Shown one piece after another: positions 15,450 to 22,640 of a DNA stretch of 64,000 nucleotides (the first letter of the stretch is position 1; every line of letters begins with the position of its first letter). This DNA comes from Candidatus Latescibacterota bacterium. GTDB lineage: Bacteria; Latescibacterota; UBA2968; UBA8231. Location: NCBI GenBank assembly GCA_965221775.1, contig CBDCSU010000006.1:2016001-2080000 (forward strand), written 5' to 3'. Both the position numbers and the translations under genes were made by a program. A model generated the notes under the pieces. That model saw nothing but the letters and a program-made list of their open reading frames with translations, searched no databases and was not told where the DNA came from.

Positions 15450-17024
15450 TCACATCCCCCAAACCTCGATCCCCGCCCCGCCGGCCGATCTCCGGCGATC
15501 GTGAAACACCTTGTCCTCCCAAGGCCTGTCCTCGCGCCGGTCGAAGATCACCAGGTGCCCCGCTTCGGCCCCGCAGCGATCCATGTATCCCGCCGTCTGT
15601 TCCACCCCCTCGGCGACCGTCCGCTCCAGGCTTCCGTGCAGAATCTTGCACTCGACCACTACCCTGAGCGTCCCTTCGCCCTGGGGCCATACAATGAGCA
15701 GGTCCGTCCGTCCCCGTCCCAACCCGTACTCCCGCTCGATCCGCCCGCCGCTGTTCACGATGCGCTGCAGGAAGGCCTGAAGCAGAAGCTGCGGTCCCGC
15801 CTCCTGGTACTGAAACCGCCCCACCCAATGCTCGGAGTGTTGGCGGAAGAACGCCTGGAAGGCCGACATCAGCCTGTCCAAATCCAGGCCCCCCTCGGCA
15901 TCCACGTACCACGCTGATTCCTGCTCGAATTCCTCCTGCACCACCCACGTCAGCTCGCGCGGAACAACCTCGGCGTAGATCGGATTGGCCATGCGCAACG
16001 GACGATCCTGGGCAATCAGACCCAGATCGCGCGCGTACTCCAGATCGCGGTCGCCAAAGCGGCGCTCTTCGCCGCCGCTCAGCAGCGGCTCCACCACCCG
16101 CCGCACGCGCTCCTCCTTGAGCTTGTCGGCCAACTGATCCAGGTGCGTCTCGCGGCGGAGGATCAGCTGCTCCTGCGCGTCGAGGATGGCCCCGGCTTCC
16201 ACCGGGTGGCTCCGGTCTCGCCCAGCCGCGCTCCTGAAGCAGGTCTCATAGGCCAGGGCGTTGACAAGCCACGGCTGCCCCCGGGTCTGCTCCCAGATCG
16301 TCTCCAGGGCGTCGTCCGTGAAGACCTGGCCCGTTTCCGCCGTGTGTTGCGCCAACAGGGTCCGCATCTCCCCGGCGCTGAAGTCGCCCAGCCGCAGCGA
16401 TTCGGCCTTGATGTTGAAGGCGCTGCCTCCGGCGATCATCGCATTCTCGGCGGTCGATTGAATCCGGTAATCGCGCACATCCCGCACTCCGCACAACACC
16501 ACGCTCTGCGGAAAGCCATCGGGCCGCAGATCGTAGCCGGCCCGCAACTGGCGCAGCACCGCCAACAGCGAATCCCCGATCAGGGAATCGATTTCGTCGA
16601 TCAGCAGCACCAGTGGCTCGGGGCTGGCCTCGGCCCAGCGCGTCAGGGCCTCGCGCAAGGCCCCCGCTCCAAACTCGGCGAAGATTCCAGCCCATGTCCG
16701 GGTCAGGAATTCGTCGCCCAGCGTCAGGCGCGCCCGGGAAGCCAAGTCGCCCAGGATAAGCTGGGTGGCTCGATCCACATCTTCGCGCATGGCTTGGGCG
16801 GCCTCCACGTTGACGTACACGCAGCGGTAGCCGCCTTCGGCGTTGATCAGGTCGCGCAGGGCCAGCAGCGAAGAGGTCTTGCCCGTCTGGCGCGGCGCGT
16901 GGAGGACGGAGTATTTCTCATCGCGGAGCAGCGCGCGAACCTCGGCGAGGTTCAGCCGGTCCAGCGGAGGGAGGCAGTAGTGCTTGTCGGGTTTGACCGG
17001 ACCAGCGGTGTTGAAGAAACGCAT
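15450..17024 (-). CDS. AAA-like P-loop ATPase with C-terminal PD-(D/E)xK-like domain
   Basis: RFFNTAGP start; HAPRQTGKT Walker A; LLIDEID Walker B; C-terminal REYGLGRGRTDLL...VECK. Confidence 0.85.
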   Translation of the reverse strand: MRFFNTAGPVKPDKHYCLPPLDRLNLAEVRALLRDEKYSVLHAPRQTGKTSSLLALRDLINAEGGYRCVYVNVEAAQAMREDVDRATQLILGDLASRARLTLGDEFLTRTWAGIFAEFGAGALREALTRWAEASPEPLVLLIDEIDSLIGDSLLAVLRQLRAGYDLRPDGFPQSVVLCGVRDVRDYRIQSTAENAMIAGGSAFNIKAESLRLGDFSAGEMRTLLAQHTAETGQVFTDDALETIWEQTRGQPWLVNALAYETCFRSAAGRDRSHPVEAGAILDAQEQLILRRETHLDQLADKLKEERVRRVVEPLLSGGEERRFGDRDLEYARDLGLIAQDRPLRMANPIYAEVVPRELTWVVQEEFEQESAWYVDAEGGLDLDRLMSAFQAFFRQHSEHWVGRFQYQEAGPQLLLQAFLQRIVNSGGRIEREYGLGRGRTDLLIVWPQGEGTLRVVVECKILHGSLERTVAEGVEQTAGYMDRCGAEAGHLVIFDRREDRPWEDKVFHDRRRSAGGAGIEVWGM

Positions 17025-17111
17025 CGCGGAAGCTCCTCATGCCTGCGGGCGGAAAACTCCGGGCCGTTCATCGGTCGCCGGATGGTGCCACCTACCTCCG
17101 CCGATGCTACA

Positions 17112-18269
17112 TCAACCAGCGCGATGAACAGCAGTCGCTTCATGGCCCTCCGGCGTCTGAACCAGGGTGAGCACGGCGATCTCGGAAGGGGCGCCGAGCC
17201 GCAACGGCGGTCCCCAGTAGCCGGTGCCCCGGTGGACGTAGATCCAGGTGTCGCGAACCTTGTGCAGGCCCGCGATGAAGGGCTGCTGCAGGCGCACGGC
17301 GTACTTCCAGGGGACGAACTGGCCGCCGTGAGTGTGACCCGACAACTGCAGGTGGCAGCCGGCGCGGCTGGCCGCCTCTATGCTGCGCGGCTGGTGAGCG
17401 AGGAGGATCCGCACGTCGGCGCCGTCGCTGCCGGCGAGGGCCCCGGCCGGGTCCGACGCGTGGCCGGGGACCATCTCGCCGGCGCTGAAGTCGGTGGCCC
17501 CGGCCACGGCGAGCCGTCCGCCGCCGCGGTCGATGTGGCGCACCTCGTTGATCAGGACGTCGAAGCCGAGGCGCCGGGCCTGGGCGGTCCACTCCTCCAC
17601 GCCCGAGTAGTACTCGTGGTTGCCGGTGCAGTAATAGACCCCGAGGGGGGCGGCGAGCCGGCCCAGGGCCGCCGTGTGCGGGGCGAGCTGTTGGACGGTG
17701 CCGTCGGCGAGATCGCCGGTGAAGGCGATCAGGTCCGGCTGCAACTCCTGGACCCTGGAGACGAGGCGCTCCACGAAGGGGCCCTTGATCGTTGGGCCCA
17801 CGTGGAGATCGCTGATCTGGACGATGCGCAGCCCCGCGAGCGCGGGAGGCAGGTCCGCCACCGGGACATCGATCCGGCGGACCGCCGGAGTGCGCCGGGC
17901 CTGGTAGTAGCCAAAGGCCGCCACGCCCAGGGCGAGGGAGAAGGTCGCCAGGTCGATTCCCGCGTTGAGCCCGGGGTCGATGGGGGTGACCAGCCCCAGA
18001 AGCAGGCCCCCCAGATCGCGCAGGACCAGCAGCGTCGAGGAGACGATGAAGAAGCCCATGCCCAGGTAGGCGACCCAGGAGAGGGGATCGCTGAGCCAGG
18101 CAAGGCGGGCACGGGAGCGCAGGCGGAAGAGCAGAAAGGGCAGGAGGAGGAGGAGGACCAACGCCGATGCCGCTCCGGTCTGAGCGGGGAGAGGCAGGTA
18201 GGGGATGAGGCGCCAGCCCGAGTAGGCGTAGACGGAGGCGAGCAGCGACAGGAAGAACAGCACCAACAT
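17112..18269 (-). CDS. Membrane-anchored metallophosphoesterase (YkuE-like)
   Basis: N-terminal TM helices; SDLH, TGDL, GNHE, HQP, SGHTHGGQ, WGPPLR. Confidence 0.9.
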   Translation of the reverse strand: MLVLFFLSLLASVYAYSGWRLIPYLPLPAQTGAASALVLLLLLPFLLFRLRSRARLAWLSDPLSWVAYLGMGFFIVSSTLLVLRDLGGLLLGLVTPIDPGLNAGIDLATFSLALGVAAFGYYQARRTPAVRRIDVPVADLPPALAGLRIVQISDLHVGPTIKGPFVERLVSRVQELQPDLIAFTGDLADGTVQQLAPHTAALGRLAAPLGVYYCTGNHEYYSGVEEWTAQARRLGFDVLINEVRHIDRGGGRLAVAGATDFSAGEMVPGHASDPAGALAGSDGADVRILLAHQPRSIEAASRAGCHLQLSGHTHGGQFVPWKYAVRLQQPFIAGLHKVRDTWIYVHRGTGYWGPPLRLGAPSEIAVLTLVQTPEGHEATAVHRAG

Positions 18270-18283
18270 GACAGGGCCTGTCT

Positions 18284-19474
18284 TCAGGCTCCGGTGGCTG
18301 TGGAGGACAGGGGCTCGGTGCCCTCGTCGAGCACGGCGAGGTACTCGCGGTAGACGAAGACCCTGTTGCGGCGGCCGCCGGTAACCTCCGTGGCGATGTC
18401 GAGGTCGCACAGCCGCTGAAGCCCGGTCCCGACCGTGGGGGCCGAGAGGCCCGTGCGCTCGACGACCCGCGCCACGTTGACGACGACCAGTTCGGCGAGA
18501 GCCTCGTGGATCCGGAGCGCCGAGTTCGCGCCCCGGCCGCTGGCGGCGATTCTCGATCGATCGCCCGAGGCCATGCTCAGCAGGCGCTGGGCGGTCTCGC
18601 GGGCGGAGGTGGCTACCGCGGCGACTCCCTCGAGAAAGAACTCGAGCCAGGACTCCCAGTCGCCGGTGCGCCGGACGGTGCCGAGCAGGTCGTAGTAGCG
18701 GTCGCGGTGCTTCTTGAAGTACAGGCTGAGATACAACACGGGCGACGAGAGCAGCCCGCGGTCGATCAGCATGAGGATGATCAGCATCCTTCCGGTGCGG
18801 CCGTTGCCGTCCATGAAGGGATGGATGGTCTCGAACTGGACGTGCGCCAGGCCGGCGCGCACCAGCGCCGGCAGACCGTCATCCACAGCGTGGACGAAGC
18901 GTTCCAGGTCGGACATGGCCGCGGCCGCCTCTGCCGGAGGGGGCGGGACGAAGGCGGCGTTCCCCGGCCGAGTCCCGCCGATCCAGTTCTGGGAGCGGCG
19001 GAACTCGCCCGGCCGCATGTGGCCGCCGCGGGCATCGGTGAGAAGGATCTGGTGCGCCTCGCGCAGCAGGCGGTTGCACAAGGGCAAGCCATCCTGGCCG
19101 GCGAGCCGGGTGGTGGCGTGGTCGACGGCCGCCACGTAGCGGGACACCTCGCGAAGATCGTCGAGGGGTGCACCCGGAGAACGGGCGGACTCGAAGCGCA
19201 GGAGGTCGGACAGGGAGGACTGCGTACCCTCGATCTGGGAGGACAGGACGGCTTCCTTGCGCACGTAGCTGTAGATGAACAGACCAGGGTCGGGCAGGAG
19301 GGAGGCCGCACCGTCCAGCCGCCCGAGGGCATGGGTCGCCTCCTCGAGGAGCACCTGCAGAGGCCCCGTCATCCGGAGGGGCGGCTCGGGCGGCAACGGC
19401 CGGGGAACGAAGGCTCGCACCTCTTCGTCGCCATGGGATGTGACCAGGTAGTCCCCGGTCGGACCGCGGTTCAT
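18284..19474 (-). CDS. Fic family protein with C-terminal HTH
   Basis: EAVLSSQIEG; canonical HPFMDGNGRTGR; winged-HTH-like C-terminus. Confidence 0.92.
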   Translation of the reverse strand: MNRGPTGDYLVTSHGDEEVRAFVPRPLPPEPPLRMTGPLQVLLEEATHALGRLDGAASLLPDPGLFIYSYVRKEAVLSSQIEGTQSSLSDLLRFESARSPGAPLDDLREVSRYVAAVDHATTRLAGQDGLPLCNRLLREAHQILLTDARGGHMRPGEFRRSQNWIGGTRPGNAAFVPPPPAEAAAAMSDLERFVHAVDDGLPALVRAGLAHVQFETIHPFMDGNGRTGRMLIILMLIDRGLLSSPVLYLSLYFKKHRDRYYDLLGTVRRTGDWESWLEFFLEGVAAVATSARETAQRLLSMASGDRSRIAASGRGANSALRIHEALAELVVVNVARVVERTGLSAPTVGTGLQRLCDLDIATEVTGGRRNRVFVYREYLAVLDEGTEPLSSTATGA

Positions 19475-19622: not shown

Positions 19623-21173
19623 ATGACTCTGCCTCGTGGCGTCACCCTTCGCCTGCTCGCCCTGCTGGCCAGCACCATGCCTGCGGCCGGCCCCCTCGAC
19701 GCCCAGCTGCGGCTGACCGCTCACCACGAGTACCAGTTCGGCAACCTTCCCGACGCTGAACCGGCCGACCTGCGGGCCCTGTACCAACAGGTGAACCTCG
19801 GCTTCGAGTCCGCGGGATTCCTGGCCAGCGCCCGCAGCGAGGCCTTCCGCTCCAGCGGCGAGGACCGCGACTACCTCCATCTCGCCCAGCGGTCGCTGTC
19901 GTACCGGCACGGCGGCCTGGAGGCCACGGCCGGGCACTTCTACGCCCTCGTGGGCCGCGGTGTGCTGCTGCACGCCTTCGAGCTTCCCGGCGTCATCACC
20001 GAGGACCGCGTCTCCCGCCGGCGTTACCAGATCGTCCGCGACCTCGACGGCGCGCGGGTGAGCGGCCGGTGGCGGCAGGTGGAGGTGCTGGCCCTGCACG
20101 GCGTGCCCGTGAACAGCGAGCTGGCCCCCGGGCTGAAGGGTCTCGACCGGCGCCAGGGCCGGGTCTCCGGGGGGGCCGTCCGGGCCAGGGTGAGCCGTGA
20201 GATCGCGGTCGGGGCGGGACTGATCGAGTTCTCCTTCGGCGGGGAGGAGGAGCTCGGCGCCACCACCCACGGGGAGCTGCGCTTCGGATCCCTCCTCGAG
20301 AGGCTTGGACTGGGCGGCTGGTACGGGGATCTCTACGGCGAGTACGCCCAGATCGACCCGGCCCCGGACCGCTGGCTGTCGCTGGACCGCGACCGTTCGC
20401 GGGCCCTTTACCTGGCCGGCACCCTGACGGGCGGGGCCTGGGGCCTGAGCCTGGAGCTGAAGGACTACGACGACTTCGCCTTCCCGAGCCTCAACAACCC
20501 GCCGACGCTGATCCGGGAGCACGAGGCCTTCCTCCTCAACCGGGAGACCCACGCCCTGCTCGCCGACGACGAGACCGGGGTGCAGGCCGAGCTGACCTGG
20601 GCCCTGCCCCGCGACATCGGACTGACCGCCGCCTGGAACCTGGCCACCCGCCGGGGACCGGACCCGGGGGACGAGAAGTCCCTGCGCGAGTACTTCGTGC
20701 AGCTGGACTCCCCGGTGGGCGAGGCATTCCACGGGCAGCTGTTCCTCGATTACACGCGCAACCGCATCCTCGAGAACGAGCGCCGCCTGACCGCGGGCAC
20801 GCGCTGGGACTGGTCCGCCGGCGGACGCCACGCCGCCAGCGCCGACCTGCAGGTGCAGGACGTGGACCGGCGCTTCGGCCGCAGCGAGTTCCCCTACGAG
20901 AACCTGCTGGGAACGGTGGAGCTCAGCCGCTATCCGGCCTGGACCTGGTCCCTGCAACTGCAGAGGTCGAACGATCCCCTGGAGGCAGGGGCCTCGGAGT
21001 CGGGAGCGACGTACTGGTGGGCCCTCGGCGCCAGCTGGCGGTTCCGCGACGCCCACACGCTGGACGTCTTCGGGGGCCGGCGCAGGACGGGGCTGGCCTG
21101 CACCGGGGGCAGCTGCTACGAGGTGCTGGGCTTCGAAGGCATCGAGCTGCGCCTCACCAGCGAGGTGCTGTAG
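19623..21173 (+). CDS. DUF6029-like outer-membrane beta-barrel protein with C-terminal Cys pair
   Basis: Signal peptide; GHFYALVGRGVLL, KDY...NNPP, and C-terminal GRRRTGLACTGGSCYEV..FEG, recalled as DUF6029 motifs. Confidence 0.65.
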   Translation: MTLPRGVTLRLLALLASTMPAAGPLDAQLRLTAHHEYQFGNLPDAEPADLRALYQQVNLGFESAGFLASARSEAFRSSGEDRDYLHLAQRSLSYRHGGLEATAGHFYALVGRGVLLHAFELPGVITEDRVSRRRYQIVRDLDGARVSGRWRQVEVLALHGVPVNSELAPGLKGLDRRQGRVSGGAVRARVSREIAVGAGLIEFSFGGEEELGATTHGELRFGSLLERLGLGGWYGDLYGEYAQIDPAPDRWLSLDRDRSRALYLAGTLTGGAWGLSLELKDYDDFAFPSLNNPPTLIREHEAFLLNRETHALLADDETGVQAELTWALPRDIGLTAAWNLATRRGPDPGDEKSLREYFVQLDSPVGEAFHGQLFLDYTRNRILENERRLTAGTRWDWSAGGRHAASADLQVQDVDRRFGRSEFPYENLLGTVELSRYPAWTWSLQLQRSNDPLEAGASESGATYWWALGASWRFRDAHTLDVFGGRRRTGLACTGGSCYEVLGFEGIELRLTSEVL

Positions 21174-21196: not shown

Positions 21197-22084
21197 TTAC
21201 TTCAGCAGAGTGACCTTGCGGGCGATGGCCGCGCCCCCTTGGCGCGCGGAAGCGATGTAAACGCCGGAGGCGACCGCTTCACCGCCTTCGTCGCGCCCGT
21301 CCCAGGTCAGGGAGTGCGTCCCCGCCGCGTAGTGTCCGGACCAGGCGCGCACTACCTGCCCCCGCAGATCGAATACGGTCAGGGCCACGGGACCTGCCGT
21401 GGTCACCGTGAAGGAGAGGGTGGTCTCGGCGTTGAAGGGATTCGGCCAGGCCTCCAGGGCGAAGCCGGCGGGCACCCGGGGGGCGGCTCCCACCGCCGTG
21501 CCGATCTCCTCCTCTTCCTCTTCGACCTCCTCCAGGGCGGCGGCCAGATCGGCCAGGGCGGTGTCGATGGCCTCGCGGATCTCGCCATCGTTGTAGCGCT
21601 GGCCGAGCCTGGCGTCGGGCGACCGGTAGCGGACCACGCCCTCGTGATCGATGACGAAGTAGTAGTCCTGGACCACGCCGTAGTCCCGGGCCACCCCGGA
21701 ACCGTTGACCAGTATCGGGTAGGTCGCCAGACCGTCGTCTACCCAGATCGACTTGACGCTCGATGCCCGTCCGTCCCAGATATCGATTCCGAGGGCGATG
21801 AGCTGATCGCCCCCGTAGTCCTGCCAGACTGCCTCGGAACTCGCGGCCTCCGCGACGCAGTACGGTCAGGTGTTCCCGAGGAAGTTGATGTAGACGACCT
21901 TCTCGCCGAGGAAGTCGCCCAGCGACACGAGCTCTCCGTCCACGGTCTCGAGCTCGAAGGTGGGGGCCGTGTCGCCGGCCGCCGCCTGGGCCTCGGCCTC
22001 CCCGGCTCCGGCCACGTGAAGAGCGGTGAGGGCGATCGCCGCGCAGGCGAACGGTCCCTTCCGCAGGACGCTTCTAGCTCTCAT
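21197..22084 (-). CDS. Predicted selenoprotein: exported TlpA/AhpC-TSA-like redoxin (UxxC) fused to C-terminal FlgD/T9SS-A-like domain, 295 aa
   Basis: ATG 22084 with RBS; signal peptide; GDTAPTFEL...GEKVVYINFLGNT-TGA(21866-21868)-PYC, then the frame stays open through TYPIL...YFVIDHEGVVRY, an acidic linker and PNPFN...WDGRDE...ASGVY...KVTLLK. Confidence 0.85.
21828..21861 (-). promoter_or_regulatory. Candidate bacterial SECIS hairpin
   Basis: mRNA after UGA reads CCGU-ACUGC-G-UCGCG-GAGGC-CGCGA-GUUCCGAG-GCAGU: lower stem ACUGC/GCAGU, upper stem UCGCG/CGCGA, G-starting apical loop about 16 nt after UGA. Confidence 0.6.
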
Positions 22085-22640
22085 CGGCTTCCCCTTTCGT
22101 CGAATCCGGAACGGCCTCACCCAGCAGCTCCACCAGCCTGGCGCGCAGGCGGATCTCGTCTCCCGGCTTGTACCCGAAGTGCTTGTACACCACCTCGCCC
22201 TCCGTGGAGAGGATCAGCGACGCCGGCACCGCGGGCAGCTGGAACTGCTTCATCACCTGCCGCGAGTGATCGAGGAGGACCGGCAGCTCCAGGCGGTGGC
22301 GCTTGAGGAAGGGCCTCACCTTGGGCTGATTGCGAGGACCGTCGACATTGACGGCGTAGACCCCCACTCCGCGGTCCTCGAACTCCCTGGCGATCTTCTG
22401 CACCGCGGGCAGCCCCTTGATGCAGGGCTTGCACCAGGTGGCCCAGAAATCGAGGATCACCGGCCCCTCTTCCAGCGCCTTCTGCAGTGAGAACTCCTTG
22501 CCGTCGAGGGACGGCAGGGTGAACTGGGACTTGGCCGCCGCCGCGGCAGGCGCCGGAGGAAGGAGCACGAGGCCGAAGGCCGGCAGGATCAGCGCCATTC
22601 GGGCCATGGCCGCGAGGGCCTTGCGGTTGCTCCTGCTCAT
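22074..22640 (-). CDS. TlpA/ResA-family thiol-disulfide oxidoreductase, exported
   Basis: Signal peptide; LDFWATWCKPC; cis-Pro loop AVP; its stop overlaps the selenoprotein start. Confidence 0.92.
   Translation of the reverse strand: MSRSNRKALAAMARMALILPAFGLVLLPPAPAAAAAKSQFTLPSLDGKEFSLQKALEEGPVILDFWATWCKPCIKGLPAVQKIAREFEDRGVGVYAVNVDGPRNQPKVRPFLKRHRLELPVLLDHSRQVMKQFQLPAVPASLILSTEGEVVYKHFGYKPGDEIRLRARLVELLGEAVPDSTKGEADES

Follow-up and report, generated by a model that had tools for sequence, protein, structure and literature searches.

A putative exported UxxC selenoprotein with a type IX sorting domain, encoded across an in-frame TGA in Latescibacterota

Introduction

Thioredoxin-fold proteins with selenocysteine (Sec, U) in a UxxC motif are the commonest kind of selenoprotein. 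Here we analyze a candidate of this kind, a redoxin gene split by an in-frame TGA at positions 21197-22084 on the minus strand of a stretch of 64,000 nucleotides (nt) from a Candidatus Latescibacterota genome (contig CBDCSU010000006.1). This whole stretch is called the window, and positions without a prefix refer to it.

Among the described systems, the closest class is the 'Prx-like thiol:disulfide oxidoreductase, PF00578, UxxC/UxxU', which is listed among the high-confidence predicted selenoproteins (PMC13188914). The GOS (Global Ocean Sampling) study counted 225 Sec forms and 2,740 cysteine (Cys) forms of 'Prx-like 1 (pfam00578, UxxC)', and it mentions Prx-like selenoproteins fused with unknown domains (PMC2398784). 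An earlier note on this DNA had taken UxxC selenoproteins of the AhpC/TSA type to be known, and the published PF00578 class bears this out (PMC13188914, PMC2398784, PMC1088965). Bacterial selenoprotein genes are described as having a Sec insertion (SECIS) hairpin directly 3' of their UGA, whose small apical loop contains G (PMC1088965). In terms of domains, a further relative is HBP35 of Porphyromonas gingivalis, described as a Cys-based thioredoxin-motif protein with a type IX secretion system (T9SS) C-terminal domain.

Judged by Pfam family and motif, the redoxin of the window fits the Prx-like class, with a PF00578 match of 56.9 bits (cut-off 26) and the motif U-P-Y-C. We consider, with a probability of roughly 0.85, that 21197-22084 is a single intact gene for an exported selenoprotein, which would comprise a signal peptide, a UxxC redoxin and a T9SS tail and take a route to the cell surface.

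Results

One reading frame with a single TGA

The minus-strand list of open reading frames (ORFs) divides the locus into 21866-22120 (84 residues, ending in ...NFLGNT) and 21197-21694 (165 residues), which lie in the same frame. Translation from 22084 to 21197 with TGA as U yields 295 residues, and U73 is the sole departure from translation table 11. The earlier note had read the two ORFs as one frame interrupted by a single TGA and had placed this TGA on the first Cys of the neighboring TlpA-type CxxC motif. Both proposals hold: in an ungapped BLASTP alignment (25% identity over 48 residues, E 4e-4), U73 and C76 are placed on C70 and C73 of the neighboring TlpA-like protein (FWATW-C-KP-C). 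The ATG start (MRARSVLRKG...) is retained in all four same-genus orthologues that were read. The features of the gene are as follows.

21197-22084, minus strand: whole gene of the putative selenoprotein, ATG at 22084-22082, TAA at 21199-21197, 295 codons including one UGA
21986-22084, minus strand: predicted Sec-type signal peptide, residues 1-33 (basic, hydrophobic, AEA), judged by eye
21626-21976, minus strand: thioredoxin-fold redoxin domain (Pfam AhpC-TSA, residues 37-153), by profile match and model
21866-21868, minus strand: UGA at codon 73, predicted to encode the selenocysteine that opens U-P-Y-C in the context NFLGNT-U-PYC
21857-21859, minus strand: TGC, predicted resolving Cys76 of the UxxC motif, invariant in the protein alignment of 15 family sequences
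21841-21855, minus strand: SECIS-like hairpin UCGCGG-AGG-CCGCGA, stem from 10 nt and loop from 16 nt after the UGA
21473-21520, minus strand: acidic disordered linker, residues 189-204 (EEVEEEEEEI...), with a predicted local distance difference test (pLDDT) score below 50
21200-21457, minus strand: C-terminal beta-sandwich (residues 210-295), assigned as T9SS type A sorting domain / FlgD_ig by the TIGR04183 and FlgD_ig matches

The in-frame "stop" codon of the active site almost certainly encodes selenocysteine, a reading that draws on the comparative sequence evidence described below.

Conservation of the TGA codon and pairing of Sec with Cys

The redoxin part alone was searched in 168 species genomes of the window's phylum (E<=1e-15). 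It gave 78 matches in 55 of the 168 genomes, 76 of them with one in-frame TGA and two with none, so the relatives do not all carry Cys at this position. One of the 76 TGA-bearing matches also has an in-frame TAG; this paralogue (G017:C1:4136423-4137238) is probably a pseudogene. At the level of the aligned codon, the first set of homologues has TGA in all but one of its 19 members (18), the exception being a tandem paralogue with TGC, and the second set reads TGA in 38 of 40 and TGT in one, with one sequence (L086) left out. Wherever it was read, the codon lies within G-x-x-U-x-x-C, and the TGA persists down to about 36% identity to the protein of the window.

Purifying selection acts downstream of the TGA much as it does upstream, as judged from four orthologue pairs with pN/pS of 0.25-0.43 downstream vs 0.23-0.46 upstream. 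Seven residues (C76, E84, Q88, G99, W103, P123 and D146) are invariant among 15 sequences, of which P123 is in what we take to be the cis-Pro loop position of the thioredoxin fold.

Outside the phylum-wide search, 1.84 billion cluster representatives were searched with the protein, and the best 150 were classified.

47 of the best 150: full-length, with Cys-x-x-Cys on U73/C76 and the same C-terminal domain
17 of the best 150: CxxC without that C-terminal domain
33 of the best 150: C-terminal fragments starting shortly after residue 73
1 of the best 150: 72-residue N-terminal fragment ending in ...GNT
1 of the best 150: Tyr at position 73
51 of the best 150: tail-only matches

Cys is thus aligned to both U73 and C76 in 64 of these best 150 representatives.

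Sec machinery in the genome

The genome (5.36 Mb, 6 contigs, about 70% G+C) encodes the Sec machinery that the earlier note had proposed to look for, namely selA, selB, the tRNA-Sec gene (selC) and selD. The selA match reaches 489 bits with PF03841 and 561 bits with TIGR00474; selB follows it directly (335 bits), and a tRNA-Sec was found by aragorn 80 nt beyond selB. The selD match (353 bits; G000:C5:959676-960599, outside the window) contains one in-frame TGA itself, and selenophosphate synthetase, its product, is probably a selenoprotein too. Among 41 close genomes, selA is present in 37 and the redoxin in 16; all 16 have selA, and none of the four selA-less genomes has the redoxin.

A SECIS-like hairpin kept in register

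The hairpin that the earlier note had seen downstream of the TGA is present, with its stem starting 10 nt and its loop 16 nt after the UGA. To analyze its conservation, 56 sequences that carry the TGA (50 distinct) were aligned, with L086 and two Cys forms left out. Across the 56 sequences the register is kept, with pairing in 80.9% of the cells of the seven-pair helix, vs 30.9-49.1% when the 3' partner is slid by 1-3 columns, and none of 500 shuffles matches the observed pairing, the 19 double-changed cells or the covariation score. An earlier test with 19 sequences was weakly above its controls, with 9 of 500 shuffles reaching the observed pairing. The conservation of both the TGA and the hairpin register across the homologues points to more than chance.

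Of the 50 distinct sequences, 28 have G-C at pair 19-29 of the helix and 17 have U-A there. The U-A group encodes the peptide C-L-S-R-A-E-S in place of the C-V-A-E-A-A found in the others; this change from G-C to U-A in a sub-clade with a different peptide suggests that the stem has been preserved although the encoded protein differs. In two smaller groups there is a shifted or different hairpin in the same place (UCUCGG-AGGCU-CCGAGA and ACGGACG-GUC-CGUCCGU). The apical loops are AGG, GGG, CGUGC or GUC, and every one of them contains G. The element therefore has the form described for bacterial SECIS, namely a hairpin that closely follows the UGA and has a small G-containing loop, and its folding energy is unexceptional.

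Independent reads across the codon

Sixteen runs of seven studies contain at least half of the sampled words of the window; these are largely sponge metagenomes, which come from three studies once the study of the best-matching run is set aside as the possible source. Four runs were compared with the window. One independent DNA contig (X5, 598 nt, 21512-22109) spans the codon with 0 differences and is the only one to match letter for letter. The codon is also bridged by X9 (DNA), X17 (570 nt, 33 differences) and X18 (212 nt, 1 difference), and none of the differences listed for these three falls at 21866-21868. X17 and X18 come from RNA libraries, whose contigs do not prove transcription, and X18-X20 contain small shares of the window.

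Domain organization and predicted fold

The protein begins with a basic, then hydrophobic segment followed by A-E-A, which by eye agrees with the signal peptide proposed earlier. A start codon and hydrophobic N-terminus were found in 15 of 18 homologue stretches, and the remaining three are cut by the end of the DNA (two) or by a short open frame (one). The PF00578 match (AhpC-TSA, residues 37-153) spans the TGA. An AlphaFold2 model built on 15 family members (mean pLDDT 79.6) shows one thioredoxin fold, with residue 73 immediately before helix 74-78. The fold thus continues past the TGA, as the earlier note had it. Beyond a long helix, the model has a disordered acidic stretch at 189-204, which is the poly-Glu linker of the earlier note and differs in length among orthologues, and a seven-strand sandwich at 210-293.

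The top solved matches of this model in Foldseek are ResA, CcmG, AhpE, Bcp and other thiol-disulfide oxidoreductases, with a TM-score on the target of 0.72-0.86 (ranks 1-10 and the ResA rows). The likeness to ResA is in fold only, as the redoxin scores 36.9 bits with the NCBIfam ResA model (NF002854), far below the cut-off of 170. The curated NCBIfam selenoprotein models also remain below their cut-offs, the best being WAxxUGC_long (19.9 vs 300) and deiodinase_rel (20.4 vs 250). The peroxidatic residue of peroxiredoxins is located in T/S-x-x-C(U). This arrangement is absent from the redoxin, in which the sequence is N-T-U-P-Y-C and Thr is adjacent to Sec instead of standing three residues ahead of the second Cys.

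The C-terminal region PNPFN...KVTLLK, described earlier as a sorting domain, is matched above cut-off by both FlgD_ig (residues 221-280, 36 bits, cut-off 27) and TIGR04183, the T9SS type A sorting domain (residues 213-291 of 295, 31.3 bits, cut-off 23). Identity with the FlgD flagellar hook-cap protein is ruled out, because the full-length model gives 30.2 bits vs 230 and matches in its Ig-like part only.

Components of type IX secretion

Two PorU genes were found in the genome (580 and 542 bits, cut-off 420), together with SprA in three pieces of one 2,192-codon frame (612 bits summed, above cut-off). The same tail was matched at 47 other places in the genome. The sorting tail, the PorU and SprA genes and the 47 further tails make type IX export of the redoxin plausible. 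If the tail works as it does in Bacteroidota, type IX secretion would place a selenoprotein on the cell surface or release it. Elsewhere, the genome encodes a membrane electron carrier of the DsbD type. In literature searches that combined selenoprotein or selenocysteine with type IX secretion, T9SS, Gemmatimonadetes or Latescibacter*, no such protein appeared in the titles and the starts of the abstracts, and the single hit for type IX secretion was on an unrelated subject.

The C-terminal part varies within the family. In L027, L029 and L030 (genomes G026, G023 and G030), the T9SS tail is swapped for paired DFDGDG-x-V-x-F-x-DFFLFA repeats, which by eye alone resemble dockerin or EF-hand repeats. 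G026 carries a Cys and a Sec form in tandem. In a 639-residue member (L026:1456-3372, G024), the redoxin domain is separated from the T9SS tail by an insert of about 350 residues.

Linkage to a TlpA-like gene and DUF6029

Two genes flank the selenoprotein gene.

22074-22640, minus strand: upstream TlpA/ResA-like CxxC redoxin, 188 residues, WATWCKPC, same operon by overlap
19623-21173, plus strand: convergent DUF6029 gene, 516 residues, predicted all-beta outer-membrane barrel (Pfam PF19494, 59.9 bits)

The start of the redoxin gene overlaps the end of the TlpA-like gene by 11 nt, and the two are very likely co-transcribed because of this overlap. DUF6029 has been linked by HHpred to the 18-strand Wzi barrel (PMC9603273). 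Our AlphaFold2 model of the DUF6029 protein is all-beta, with a mean pLDDT of 56.6, which is too low for a fold search. Near its C-terminus, a C-x4-C pair is present in 15 of 15 orthologues, and in 12 of these 15 the two are the only cysteines of the part read.

Among 17 homologous loci with flanks, the redoxin is adjoined by DUF6029 in 13 and by the TlpA-like gene in 11. Across the phylum, 41 genomes have matches to both, and in 38 of these the single DUF6029 gene has one redoxin copy at a distance of no more than about 2.5 kb, in varying orientation. The TlpA-like gene directly precedes DUF6029 in all five more distant genomes fetched (loci L178-L182). A Sec-redoxin follows downstream of DUF6029 in two of these five, in one immediately after it, and this third gene is absent from two others. 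One of the two distant Sec-redoxins reads ...GYA-U-SVC and has long extra domains; the other reads ...ASW-U-PVC in a protein of about 700 residues (L180:4800-6911, G079), which stands beside DUF6029 and has the redoxin in its C-terminal part. The N-terminal region of this protein is long and rich in repeats, and its end consists of DFDxNG..FxDFVIFA repeats.

TlpA and DUF6029 seem to be the old core of the unit, with the Sec-redoxin and its interchangeable C-terminal domains for anchoring or sorting as a third member. We infer a redox link among the TlpA-like protein, DUF6029 and the Sec-redoxin. The tight linkage offers a starting point for tests of what DUF6029 does.

Downstream of DUF6029, a three-gene cluster occupies 15450-19474 on the minus strand, encoding a Fic/DOC protein (18284-19474), a calcineurin-like phosphoesterase (17112-18410) and an AAA_22 ATPase (15450-17024). 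This cluster is possibly mobile or of the defence type.

Representation in public collections

The expectation that standard pipelines would misannotate the gene is borne out, in that the public gene calls hold only its split fragments, namely 72-residue N-terminal and roughly 200-residue C-terminal pieces. Ten clusters were looked up. Those of the 72-residue N-terminal fragment and of one C-terminal fragment include 'hypothetical protein' entries, and the other C-terminal fragment cluster is nameless. The clusters of two Calditrichota CxxC forms bear the name 'T9SS C-terminal target domain-containing protein', and two relatives are named 'peroxiredoxin' by JGI. The whole family is split by every standard gene caller and lies outside the curated NCBIfam selenoprotein models. 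It comprises no fewer than 76 genes, spread over 53 species-level genomes of the phylum, and many metagenome fragments. A family model would mend the annotation.

The organism labels of the nearest named NCBI records are in conflict between Gemmatimonadaceae and Latescibacterota. The nearest to the redoxin gene (92% identity) is labelled 'uncultured Gemmatimonadaceae bacterium'. The named records nearest to SelA are 'Candidatus Latescibacterota bacterium' (92%), 'uncultured Gemmatimonadaceae' (67%), 'uncultured Latescibacteria' (60%) and 'Candidatus Latescibacterota' (49%). We regard the lineage as belonging to the FCB group and most likely to Latescibacterota.

Discussion

A possible route from codon to cell surface

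We propose that the ribosome decodes the UGA at codon 73 as selenocysteine, with the hairpin 10 nt downstream recruiting SelB and its Sec-tRNA(Sec). The product would cross the inner membrane via the Sec translocon, and its C-terminal domain may then be passed to the type IX secretion system, with SprA as translocon and PorU as sortase. The protein would end on the cell surface or outside the cell and act there as a thiol-disulfide oxidoreductase, in which Sec73 would attack the disulfide of a substrate and Cys76 would resolve the selenenylsulfide. The redoxin may work in a conserved unit with the periplasmic CxxC TlpA-like protein and the DUF6029 barrel with its Cys pair. A further extension, which we regard as speculative and rather doubtful, is that these three proteins form a redox relay across the outer membrane, running from the periplasmic CxxC through the C-x4-C of the barrel to a selenoenzyme at the surface. 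Such an enzyme would be the first selenoprotein cargo of the T9SS, and might handle extracellular disulfides or peroxide in sponge-associated bacteria while resisting over-oxidation.

Several observations weigh against the proposed exported selenoprotein, some concerning the hairpin and some the secretion. The folding energy of the hairpin is ordinary for a sequence of about 70% G+C (z -0.16, with 74 of 200 shuffles as good, and z -0.04, with 93 of 200). An Rfam search of 21700-21950 at permissive thresholds gave one chance-level match (sR58, E 7.4). RNAalifold, when unaided, did not choose the hairpin and returned a weak 4-bp long-range helix (-0.25 kcal/mol). The covariation is mainly that of pair 19-29 and probably reflects one or few events among related sequences. 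The outer pair 16-32 (21 of 50) and the innermost pair 22-26 (30 of 50) are only partly paired. Moreover, the tandem Cys paralogue in G026 retains the hairpin of its sub-clade, which is therefore not exclusive to TGA forms. As for secretion, Pfam Por_Secre_tail matches the C-terminal domain below threshold (19.4 bits vs a cut-off of 27), as does the PorV model the PorV-like gene beside one of the PorU genes (148 vs 250 bits). Some family members with other C-terminal domains in place of the T9SS tail keep the same neighborhood. Finally, we know of no reductant at the bacterial cell surface.

Alternative explanations

The alternative that survives best concerns the final location of the protein. 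A genuine selenoprotein may be kept in the periplasm or at the inner face of the outer membrane, where its beta-sandwich would be used for Ig-like docking, for example to the DUF6029 barrel, instead of as a signal for T9SS export. We consider this arrangement possible, though rather unlikely. The sub-threshold Por_Secre_tail score and the better Pfam match to FlgD_ig speak for it, as do the members that keep the TlpA/DUF6029 neighborhood with DFDGDG..FFLFA repeats or extra domains at the C-terminus, and both the TlpA-type partners and the DsbD-type electron source are periplasmic. The TIGR04183 match above its cut-off, the presence of SprA, two PorU genes and 47 other tail sites, and the naming of the CxxC homologues as T9SS-target proteins by NCBI argue instead for passage to the surface.

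A second alternative accepts the Sec residue and assigns it another reaction, that of a peroxiredoxin-like Sec peroxidase rather than of a disulfide reductase or isomerase. This is improbable. The best Pfam family is indeed AhpC/TSA, AhpE and Bcp are among the top fold matches, and JGI uses the name 'peroxiredoxin' for two relatives. However, ResA and CcmG match the fold equally well, the operon partner is a TlpA-like protein with W-C-x-x-C, and Sec stands first in U-x-x-C, a motif that is contrasted with the T-x-x-U of Sec peroxiredoxins in PMC1088965.

It is far less probable that the TGA is a nonsense mutation or a sequencing error, leaving a dead gene or two small genes. The gene callers do split the frame in this way, and the G017 paralogue with both TGA and TAG may be a pseudogene. 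Against this stand the shared codon position of the TGA in 76 of 78 matches, some as low as about 36% in identity, the purifying selection downstream of it and the X5 contig that is identical across the codon; in addition, the C-terminal piece alone would be without a signal peptide and half of the fold. The least credible explanation, that TGA is generally read as an amino acid in an alternative genetic code, has the open frame in its favor and nothing beyond, and can practically be set aside, since the selA, selB, PorU and SprA matches contain no internal stops and homologues of the redoxin terminate with TGA right after ...LLLLR, which indicates that TGA is not a general sense codon, while the aligned residue in relatives is Cys rather than Trp or Gly and a dedicated tRNA-Sec and SelB are present.

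Comparison with known systems

With the Prx-like class, the redoxin of the window shares PF00578, Sec as the first residue of UxxC, many Cys homologues, a hairpin after the UGA and a function that is predicted. The window's clade is unlike that class in having a predicted signal peptide, an acidic linker and a T9SS type A domain, and in carrying Sec in 76 of 78 phylum matches and being tied to TlpA and DUF6029 genes. Within the literature searched, neither a Sec form that is a likely T9SS cargo nor its TlpA/DUF6029 linkage appears to have been described.

By description, HBP35 resembles the redoxin as an exported, surface-attached protein that joins a thioredoxin-type redox domain to a T9SS C-terminal domain. 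Unlike the redoxin, it is described as using Cys, binding hemin and coming from Bacteroidota.

ResA, CcmG and TlpA are close in other respects: they provide the best fold matches, they are exported, their active site is at the start of helix 1, and the invariant P123 of the redoxin occurs at the expected cis-Pro loop. The redoxin differs from them in that Sec replaces Cys, a sorting domain is added and a membrane anchor is missing.

The closest likeness in architecture is to the CxxC redoxins with T9SS tails of other FCB-group phyla (e.g. Calditrichota), which have the same two domains over the full length at 33-38% identity. A locus search with an alignment of 15 CxxC homologues drew on the tail motif alone and gave 80 tail-only loci, and no redoxin motif was found upstream of the tail in the 20 that reach furthest N-terminally and were checked. 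The earlier note had taken a Sec redoxin with a putative surface-sorting domain for an undescribed architecture. With 47 full-length CxxC proteins among the best 150 representatives, the combination of redoxin and sorting domain is not new in itself, and the part of the claim that stands is that its Sec form with the tail appears undescribed. The CxxC homologues with T9SS tails carry Cys at the very position where the redoxin of the window has its predicted Sec.

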